From sequence record PQ510734.1: 64,000 nucleotides of DNA. One strand, written 5' to 3'. Numbering within the stretch: position 1 is the stretch's first letter; each line of letters begins with the position of its first letter. The stretch is from Escherichia phage A6-6. Positions 39,329-40,206 of the stretch are shown piece after piece. Made by a program: the position numbers and the translations under genes. The notes beneath the pieces were generated by a model. The model was given only the letters and a program-made list of their open reading frames with translations, searched no databases and had not been told where the DNA came from.

Positions 39329-39622
39329 CTATTTAATGAATACTTTAGATGATGCCTGAGCCACAGTATCACCGCATGATATTGGATCAGCCATTTGAAC
39401 AGCTTTCTTTCCAGTGACATATACCTTAGAAGTTCTAGGTTGTGTCACTCCGCCATGTGTTTCATATGGCTTTTTAATTTCTGTATGTTCTGTAATTGGA
39501 TCACCTGCTACGAGAACAGCAATTCCTCCAGTGAATACTTTACTTTGCGTAGCATTCACAACTGTTGGAGGCCATGCTTCATGGCCGGCAGTAACACACT
39601 TATCATAACTTAATCCTGACAT
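39329..39622 (-). CDS. 5.4: PAAR-repeat spike tip protein gp5.4
   Basis: 97 aa as T4 gp5.4; small Gly/Val-rich beta protein next to gene 6. Confidence 0.85.
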
Positions 39623-40206
39623 TTATAATACCCCGCTTTAACTCGCCCCTTTAAGGTACTATAATTTATATTAAGAGCTTTAGCTGCGATTTTAATACTT
39701 TTATATAAAACGCCGTTGATAATAACAGATTTAGCATTAGGGGCTATTTTGCCATACCTTGGGTTATTGGCGCCACACATCTTCAGAGTTTTACCTCTAG
39801 GCCCTCTAGGCCCTCTTTTTCTAGACGATTTAATGCTAATTTTCAATCTAGTTTCACGCGAATGAGATTTACCGTAAAATCCATTTTTAGCACCCGCTGT
39901 GTTATGTTTTGGGAAGCCACCGATACCGCCTAGTTTCATATTATAAGTTTTCTTAGATTTAACAAATTCCTCTGTGACTATTTCTGCCTCTGCGTCATAC
40001 ATAGCTTTTTCAGATTCAAAGAATTTTATAATATGCTTATAAAAATTATCTATGCCATATTTTTTAATGGCATTTTTAATGGCAACGCCAGAACCCATAT
40101 ACCCATCATCCAAATTTGAAGTTTTGTGGACGCCTACATAAATTTTTCCTGTTGTTTTATTAGTTATTGAATACAAATAAAAATATTTATGGTCTTGCAT
40201 AGGCAT
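39610..40206 (-). CDS. GIY-YIG homing endonuclease (Seg-like)
   Basis: N-terminal GIY-YIG module [19 protein letters not shown]...DDGYMGSG...NFYKHII; basic C-terminal half ([11 protein letters not shown]) consistent with a DNA-binding domain; both ends overlap neighbouring genes. Confidence 0.8.

Follow-up and report, generated by a model that had tools for sequence, protein, structure and literature searches.

The GIY-YIG open reading frame between genes 5.1 and 5.4 of Escherichia phage A6-6 corresponds to segC of phage T4

The closest described counterpart of the gene considered here is segC of phage T4, which Table 1 of the review by Edgell (2010; PMC2988022) lists, citing Shcherbakov et al. 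2002, as a free-standing, active GIY-YIG endonuclease inserted between genes 5.1 and 5.3. According to that review, segC is a cassette without a promoter of its own that depends on upstream T4 promoters and overlaps the upstream open reading frame (ORF) by 20 bp, an overlap that probably limits its translation (PMC2988022). More generally, seg endonucleases are described there as excluding T2 markers through double-strand-break repair, and its statement on preferential inheritance from T4 x T2 crosses covers the seg endonucleases collectively and does not single out SegC (PMC2988022); the marker exclusion that the original prediction for this DNA ascribed to Seg-type endonucleases is thus on record for the seg genes.

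Other members of the group resemble SegC to differing degrees. The T4 enzymes SegB, SegD, and SegE are, like SegC, products of free-standing, intergenic genes of T-even phages and are 53-55% identical to it over the first 90-100 residues, that is, the GIY-YIG domain—their C-terminal DNA-binding halves, however, are unrelated to that of SegC, with no tblastn match past approximately residue 100, and their insertion sites and targets also differ. I-TevI, from the td intron of T4 (PDB 1mk0 and 1ln0), follows the same plan of nuclease, linker, and helix-turn-helix and has a catalytic fold like that modelled for SegC, but it is intron-encoded whereas SegC is free-standing, structural-alignment identity between the two is 19-20%, and a zinc finger occupies the place corresponding to the NUMOD3 motif of SegC.

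The window analysed here, a stretch of 64,000 nucleotides from Escherichia phage A6-6 (PQ510734.1), is collinear over its entire length with T4 ~56-121 kb, in reverse orientation and at ~96.5% identity. To judge from sequence identity, the 198-aa ORF that it carries between genes 5.1 and 5.4 is the already described selfish gene segC of T4, an ordinary feature with nothing new about it. The DNA of the ORF is 99.7-100% identical to segC in 32 phage records, including T4, T4T, RB55, and RB59, and the same 597-bp coding sequence is annotated “SegC homing endonuclease; GIY-YIG family” in T4T (HM137666; protein ADJ39869) and in MT984581 (protein QPI17374), with position and orientation unchanged with respect to 5.1 and 5.4. 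A single nucleotide separates the gene from segC of T4T (99.8% DNA identity), and it changes one residue, Gly18 here for Glu18 in T4. The gene order 53-5-5.1-segC-5.4-6 is common to the window and T4, and the 2 kb surrounding the ORF match T4 at 98.1% identity; the T4 genes there are 5, 5.1, segC, (5.3), 5.4, and 6. No record identical to the window was found in the phage collection, in which the best matches to positions 44000-64000 are ~96-97% identical. The original prediction had proposed a Seg-type GIY-YIG endonuclease; the class is borne out by the identity with segC, although the gene had been left unnamed even though the names 5.1 and 5.4 already point to T4. We therefore consider it very probable that the ORF is an intact orthologue of T4 segC, encoding a free-standing, intron-less GIY-YIG homing endonuclease that would home by the five steps proposed below. 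Its position, architecture, and distribution are in line with what has already been published for Seg endonucleases.

Coordinates of segC, its neighbours, and related features (Table 1) confirm the predicted 198-aa frame and its overlaps with both flanking genes, which amount to 13 nt with gene 5.4 (39610-39622) and 20 nt with gene 5.1 (40187-40206). Within the first 13 nt of gene 5.4 lie the final SegC codons and their stop; viewed by origin, the first seven segC codons come from 5.1-derived sequence and the last four codons plus the stop from 5.4-derived sequence. A second in-frame ATG at 40198-40200, used as the start in some records, would give a protein of 196 aa and an overlap of 14 nt. 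A frame open by chance is ruled out by the 1284 homologues recovered at E<=1e-3. The predicted location between two baseplate genes holds for 5.4, which encodes the PAAR spike-tip protein; gene 5.1 has no assigned function, and a “baseplate” or “structural” label for it is therefore not established.

Table 1. Positions of segC, its predicted domains, its insertion site, and related genes and motifs (window coordinates unless a locus handle, L, is given)
Feature	Position	Strand	Details and evidence
segC ORF	39610..40206	minus	ATG start, 198 aa, 597 bp; ORF list and DNA identity to T4 segC
Gene 5.4, 97-aa ORF, downstream neighbour	39329..39622	minus	PAAR spike-tip protein; Pfam PAAR_motif 39 bits; T4 annotation
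Gene 5.1, 185-aa ORF, upstream neighbour	40187..40744	minus	PHROG 1168, unknown function; T4-annotated start = 40681
Predicted GIY-YIG catalytic domain, ~residues 8-95	39922..40185	minus	Pfam, alignment, AlphaFold2, Foldseek
NUMOD3 DNA-binding motif, residues 105-124	39835..39894	minus	Pfam NUMOD3 28.3 bits, cut-off 20.4
Putative C-terminal helix-turn-helix DNA-binding module, residues 152-191	39634..39753	minus	Pfam I-TevI_DNA-bd, sub-threshold
Direct repeat GGGCCTAGAG GGCCTAGAGG, encoding GPRGPRG	39794..39813	minus	Alignment
564-bp insertion relative to segC-less phages	39627..40190	minus	Alignments with JLBYU24, T6, PST, RB68, and others
Empty-site arrangement 1			...GAGAGGCCATAAATGTCAGG...; TAA then directly ATG
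Empty-site arrangement 2			...GAGAGGTCATAGATGTCAGG...; TAG then directly ATG
Empty-site arrangement 3			...GAGAGGCAATAATGTCAGG...; TAA and ATG share one A
3' end of gene 5.1, with the ribosome-binding region and first codons of segC	40191..40214	minus	Variant GAGAGAATATGCCTATGCAAGACC versus segC-less GAGAAGCTATGTGTATGAGAGGCC
T4 late-promoter consensus motif TATAAATA	40609..40616	minus	Inside 5.1, ~400 nt upstream of segC
Late-promoter motif TATAAATA	43046-43053	coding strand	Upstream of gene 53
Moonvirus segC-like gene	L006:2502-3116 (Citrobacter phage Moon); also L020, L026		
288-aa Seg-like gene	L007:1106-1972; L003:3217-4083 (Manna); L051:1727-2593 (LH2); L045, L047, L049 (T6, PYPS2T, ACG-C40)		
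225-aa GIY-YIG gene between 5.4 and 6	L017:2791-3468		One IMG/VR T4-like genome

From N- to C-terminus, SegC comprises a GIY-YIG nuclease, a basic linker that carries the NUMOD3 motif, and a helix-turn-helix. The GIY-YIG module read from the sequence was recovered by profile searches, with the SegE_GIY-YIG model (PF19835) scoring 27.2 bits on residues 8-82, above its cut-off of 25, and PHROG 314 (“homing endonuclease”) matching residues 1-193 at E 1.4e-56; the generic GIY-YIG model (PF01541) scored 19.1, below its cut-off of 22.6. At the N-terminus lies a hairpin that retains the GIY-x10-YIG spacing in the form YLY-x10-YVG (Y10-L-Y12 ... I22-Y23-V-G25), and the Seg-family profile aligns it to “IYQIKNTLNNKVYVG” of I-TevI. 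Thirteen positions are invariant in the 45-50 aligned homologues (Y12, N16, Y23, G25, D34, Y36, G38, G40, E73, Y88, N89, G93, and G94). In I-TevI, the catalytic Glu and Asn of the second half of the domain are E75 and N90; E73 and N89 of SegC, both invariant in the family alignment, are spaced as I-TevI would lead one to expect. The canonical catalytic Arg that follows the YIG motif is R27 in I-TevI; no counterpart is evident in the SegC sequence at the corresponding spacing, the position ten residues beyond Y23 not being an Arg, and the conserved positions close by are H27, D34, Y36, and K49.

The C-terminal half is basic, as had been predicted—residues 100-198 contain 24 Lys and Arg against 2 Asp and Glu, with a pI of 10.7—and the I-TevI_DNA-bd model matched residues 152-191 at 23.8 bits (E 4.1e-5), short of its 27-bit cut-off. 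In an AlphaFold2 model built from the family alignment, the N-terminal part is predicted to adopt the alpha/beta GIY-YIG fold (pLDDT 95-98 over residues 11-90), the basic linker is disordered (pLDDT <50 over residues 98-108 and 136-144), and the C-terminal module appears, with moderate confidence, as strand-helix-strand (pLDDT 70-83). Searched against the PDB with Foldseek, the model gave the I-TevI catalytic domain as its three best hits and the sole ones of probability 1.00 (1mk0 and 1ln0; target TM 0.63-0.65, E 0.01-0.03). Fold comparison was needed to make this connection, because a phmmer search of the SegC protein against PDB sequences returned no match at E<=1 and the match of the family profile to I-TevI was weak (E 0.11) and confined to the GIY-x10-YIG hairpin.

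The same comparisons bear on “gene 5.3” of the T4 reference. The records AF158101/NC_000866 are one base short in the GGGCCTAGAGGGCCTAGAGG repeat (T4 locus 2111-2706), which splits the gene into a “segC” of 140 aa and a “5.3” of 56 aa; accordingly, the segC match is 596 bp long in these records, as opposed to 597 bp in all other T4 records listed. The product of T4 gene 5.3 is 100% identical to the window over 39613-39780. Since the 597-bp gene is intact in the window and in the other listed T4 records, “gp5.3” is the helix-turn-helix tail of SegC; what the T4 reference calls gene 5.3 would thus be the DNA-binding tail of SegC and no separate gene. Record MT984581 annotates both a full segC and gene 5.3, so that the 5.3 annotation still propagates.

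Homing endonuclease genes commonly decay once fixed, and segC of A6-6 might accordingly be a decayed or domesticated remnant, an open frame that no longer encodes an active homing endonuclease but, for example, a DNA-binding protein with another role, or a gene in the course of being lost. The frameshifted copy in the T4 reference record and the ability of most T4-like phages to manage without segC would agree with this. We nevertheless regard it as very improbable: the ORF is intact and keeps all of the family-invariant residues, intact ORFs of 196 or 198 aa were found in all six of the other segC-carrying lineages examined, the frameshift is restricted, among the T4 records listed, to AF158101/NC_000866, and SegC of T4 is reported to be active (PMC2988022). 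Divergence also speaks against a remnant. Between the window and T4, segC differs at 2 of 600 positions and the flanks at 397 of 12,000 (3.3%; binomial P = 4e-7), and this near-identity in phages whose flanks diverge by ~3% points to recent spread of the gene, not long residence.

Alignment with segC-less Tequatroviruses (JLBYU24, T6, PST, PYPS2T, RB68, ACG-C40, and two IMG/VR contigs) shows the gene as an insertion that measures exactly 564 bp in the window and in six other segC-carrying phages, and 563 bp in the T4 reference. The hexamer ATAAAT flanks the insert at 40185-40190 and 39621-39626; because it bounds both ends, 7 placements of the junction, spanning 6 nt, are equally valid. In the segC-less Tequatroviruses, the stop of 5.1 abuts or overlaps the start of 5.4 in one of three arrangements (Table 1). 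The gene is sporadic, as had been supposed for Seg-type endonucleases of T-even phages—a full segC occurs in about 36 of ~490 Tequatrovirus records (the junction region itself was matched in about 484 records), many of the 36 being T4 laboratory stocks, and among 38 de-replicated T4-like IMG/VR loci from several genera, 5.4 directly follows 5.1 without an insert in 35. Moon and CF1 have a segC-like gene in the slot, and one locus has a different GIY-YIG gene after 5.4. Presence or absence is thus polymorphic at one precise site among close relatives, with segC missing and the empty site clean in roughly 450 records, and the 5.1-5.4 block does not universally include the gene, which most T4-like phages lack.

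Sequence immediately upstream of the insertion also varies with the presence of the gene. The two forms of the 5.1 end, GAGAGAATATGCCTATGCAAGACC and GAGAAGCTATGTGTATGAGAGGCC, differ by 8 nucleotides within the last 8 codons of 5.1, a distinction that holds between most segC-carrying and segC-less genomes. Among the segC-carrying phages there are three types of upstream junction: the window and T4 read GAGA(G/A)AATATGCCTATGCAAGACC, of which ESh33 and Manna have a one-base variant; AdolfPortmann has a hybrid; and in LH2, an end of the segC-less type (GAGAAGCTACGTGTATGAGAGGCC) is fused directly to segC, which for that reason lacks its first ATG. When an artificial empty site was constructed with the 5.1 end of the window, its best 25 matches all came from segC-carrying phages and only 30 records reached at least 95% identity; no segC-less genome with a 5.1 end of the segC-carrying type was present among those best 25 matches. 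On sequence grounds, the mosaic junctions and the matches to the artificial site fit gene conversion with co-conversion tracts of variable length. Both signs of horizontal spread—a gene less diverged than its flanks and mosaic junctions—are therefore present at this locus. It is also possible, if on the doubtful side, that the 5.1-end variant, which in this collection occurs in segC-carrying genomes only, is more than hitch-hiking variation, marks the recognition or cleavage site of SegC, and acts as a cleavage-resistant “immunity” allele, one separable from segC itself, with phages of the LH2 type keeping a susceptible 5.1 end and being protected by the insertion alone. If this were true, the natural junction variants would form a ready-made series for mapping SegC specificity.

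Relatives of segC also occur in this region outside the Tequatroviruses. In Citrobacter phages Moon and CF1, which belong to a different genus (Moonvirus), the 5.1/5.4 slot likewise holds a segC-like gene (AIX12141), whose product shares the GIY-YIG and NUMOD3 architecture of SegC but is only 49% identical to it, is 204 aa long, and carries two NUMOD3 repeats; a sub-threshold I-TevI_ZnF hit was obtained for the Moon homologue only. The presence of this diverged gene indicates that occupation of the slot is old and that the slot is targeted by the family across genera. Neighbouring positions are occupied as well. A Seg-like gene of 288 aa (PHROG 314, E 5.8e-26; no Pfam hit) lies between genes 5 and 5.1 in T6, PYPS2T, ACG-C40, Manna, LH2, and the genome of locus L007 and is absent from the window; Manna and LH2 carry it in addition to segC. 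The 225-aa gene between 5.4 and 6, which reaches 26.1 bits with Pfam SegE_GIY-YIG and is 33% identical to SegC, brings to three the number of independent endonuclease slots in the short interval from gene 5 to gene 6.

That the diverged Moonvirus gene fills the same slot could be taken to mean that segC belonged to the 5-6 module ancestrally, was passed on vertically, and has since been deleted from most phages, with no mobile insertion involved, but we find this barely credible. In segC-less phages of many genera, the 5.1 stop and 5.4 start lie within 0-3 nt of each other and there is no scar, which makes repeated identical clean deletions unlikely; segC shows far less divergence than its flanks, where vertical inheritance would predict the reverse; and one and the same segC follows upstream junctions of different types.

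We also examined the claim that no mobile element other than this insertion, segC, can be recognised in the window, and it holds as far as tblastn, the Seg-family HMM, Pfam, Rfam, and the inspection of indels extend. The T4 genome carries segB, segD, segE, and mobD, whereas the window, from another Tequatrovirus, is without all four: tblastn with T4 MobD, SegB, SegD, and SegE detected no separate counterparts in it. Among its 229 six-frame ORFs, segC was the sole hit of the Seg-family HMM, and Rfam found no group I intron, its only hits being 11 tRNAs. Where the window has no alignment to T4, a Pfam search of the ORFs recovered a y05I-like protein, DUF7412, a phage zinc-binding domain, and unassigned small proteins, with no nuclease among them; the T4-aligned blocks contain no large indels, which is the sole ground for excluding hidden HNH or LAGLIDADG genes there.

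The positions held in T4 by segE, segD, segB, and mobD are empty or otherwise filled (window 8450-8470, 13815-13873, 47973-48481, and 62674-63630). The mobD slot contains a y05I-like paralogue (62656-63177) and a hydrophobic ORF of 153 aa (63180-63641). The tRNA cluster at 47464-48481 has 11 Rfam hits, one of them marginal (30.2 bits), as compared with 8 tRNAs annotated in T4, and the extra hits sit at the T4 segB position.

The arrangement in the window fits the published picture of segC, in that there is no gap for a promoter, the 20-nt overlap is the same, and late-promoter motifs lie on the coding strand inside 5.1 and upstream of gene 53. We propose that segC, having no promoter of its own, would be transcribed with the late 53/5/5.1 message, and that re-initiation at its ATG, which overlaps the end of 5.1, would give a low level of translation. 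When a segC-less relative infects the same cell, SegC would then cut both strands of that relative's genome, at its uninterrupted 5.1/5.4 junction or close to it, and T4-type recombination-dependent repair would copy the segC-carrying allele and part of its flanks into the broken genome; segC would therefore spread, and neighbouring markers of the competitor would be excluded. Endonuclease activity and the promotion of recombination are taken here from the literature, whereas for this particular copy both its activity and the place where it cuts are inferred. The late-promoter consensus motif inside 5.1 (Table 1) is a possible additional source of late segC transcripts, in a window where TATAAATA occurs 24 times against 9.7 expected.

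For annotation, these results mean that the gene should be labelled segC, homing endonuclease, and beyond that its significance is small. Its presence marks A6-6 as one of the few Tequatroviruses other than T4 that carry segC, and in mixed infections, inheritance of the 5-6 region, which encodes spike and baseplate, would be expected to be biased towards this phage.
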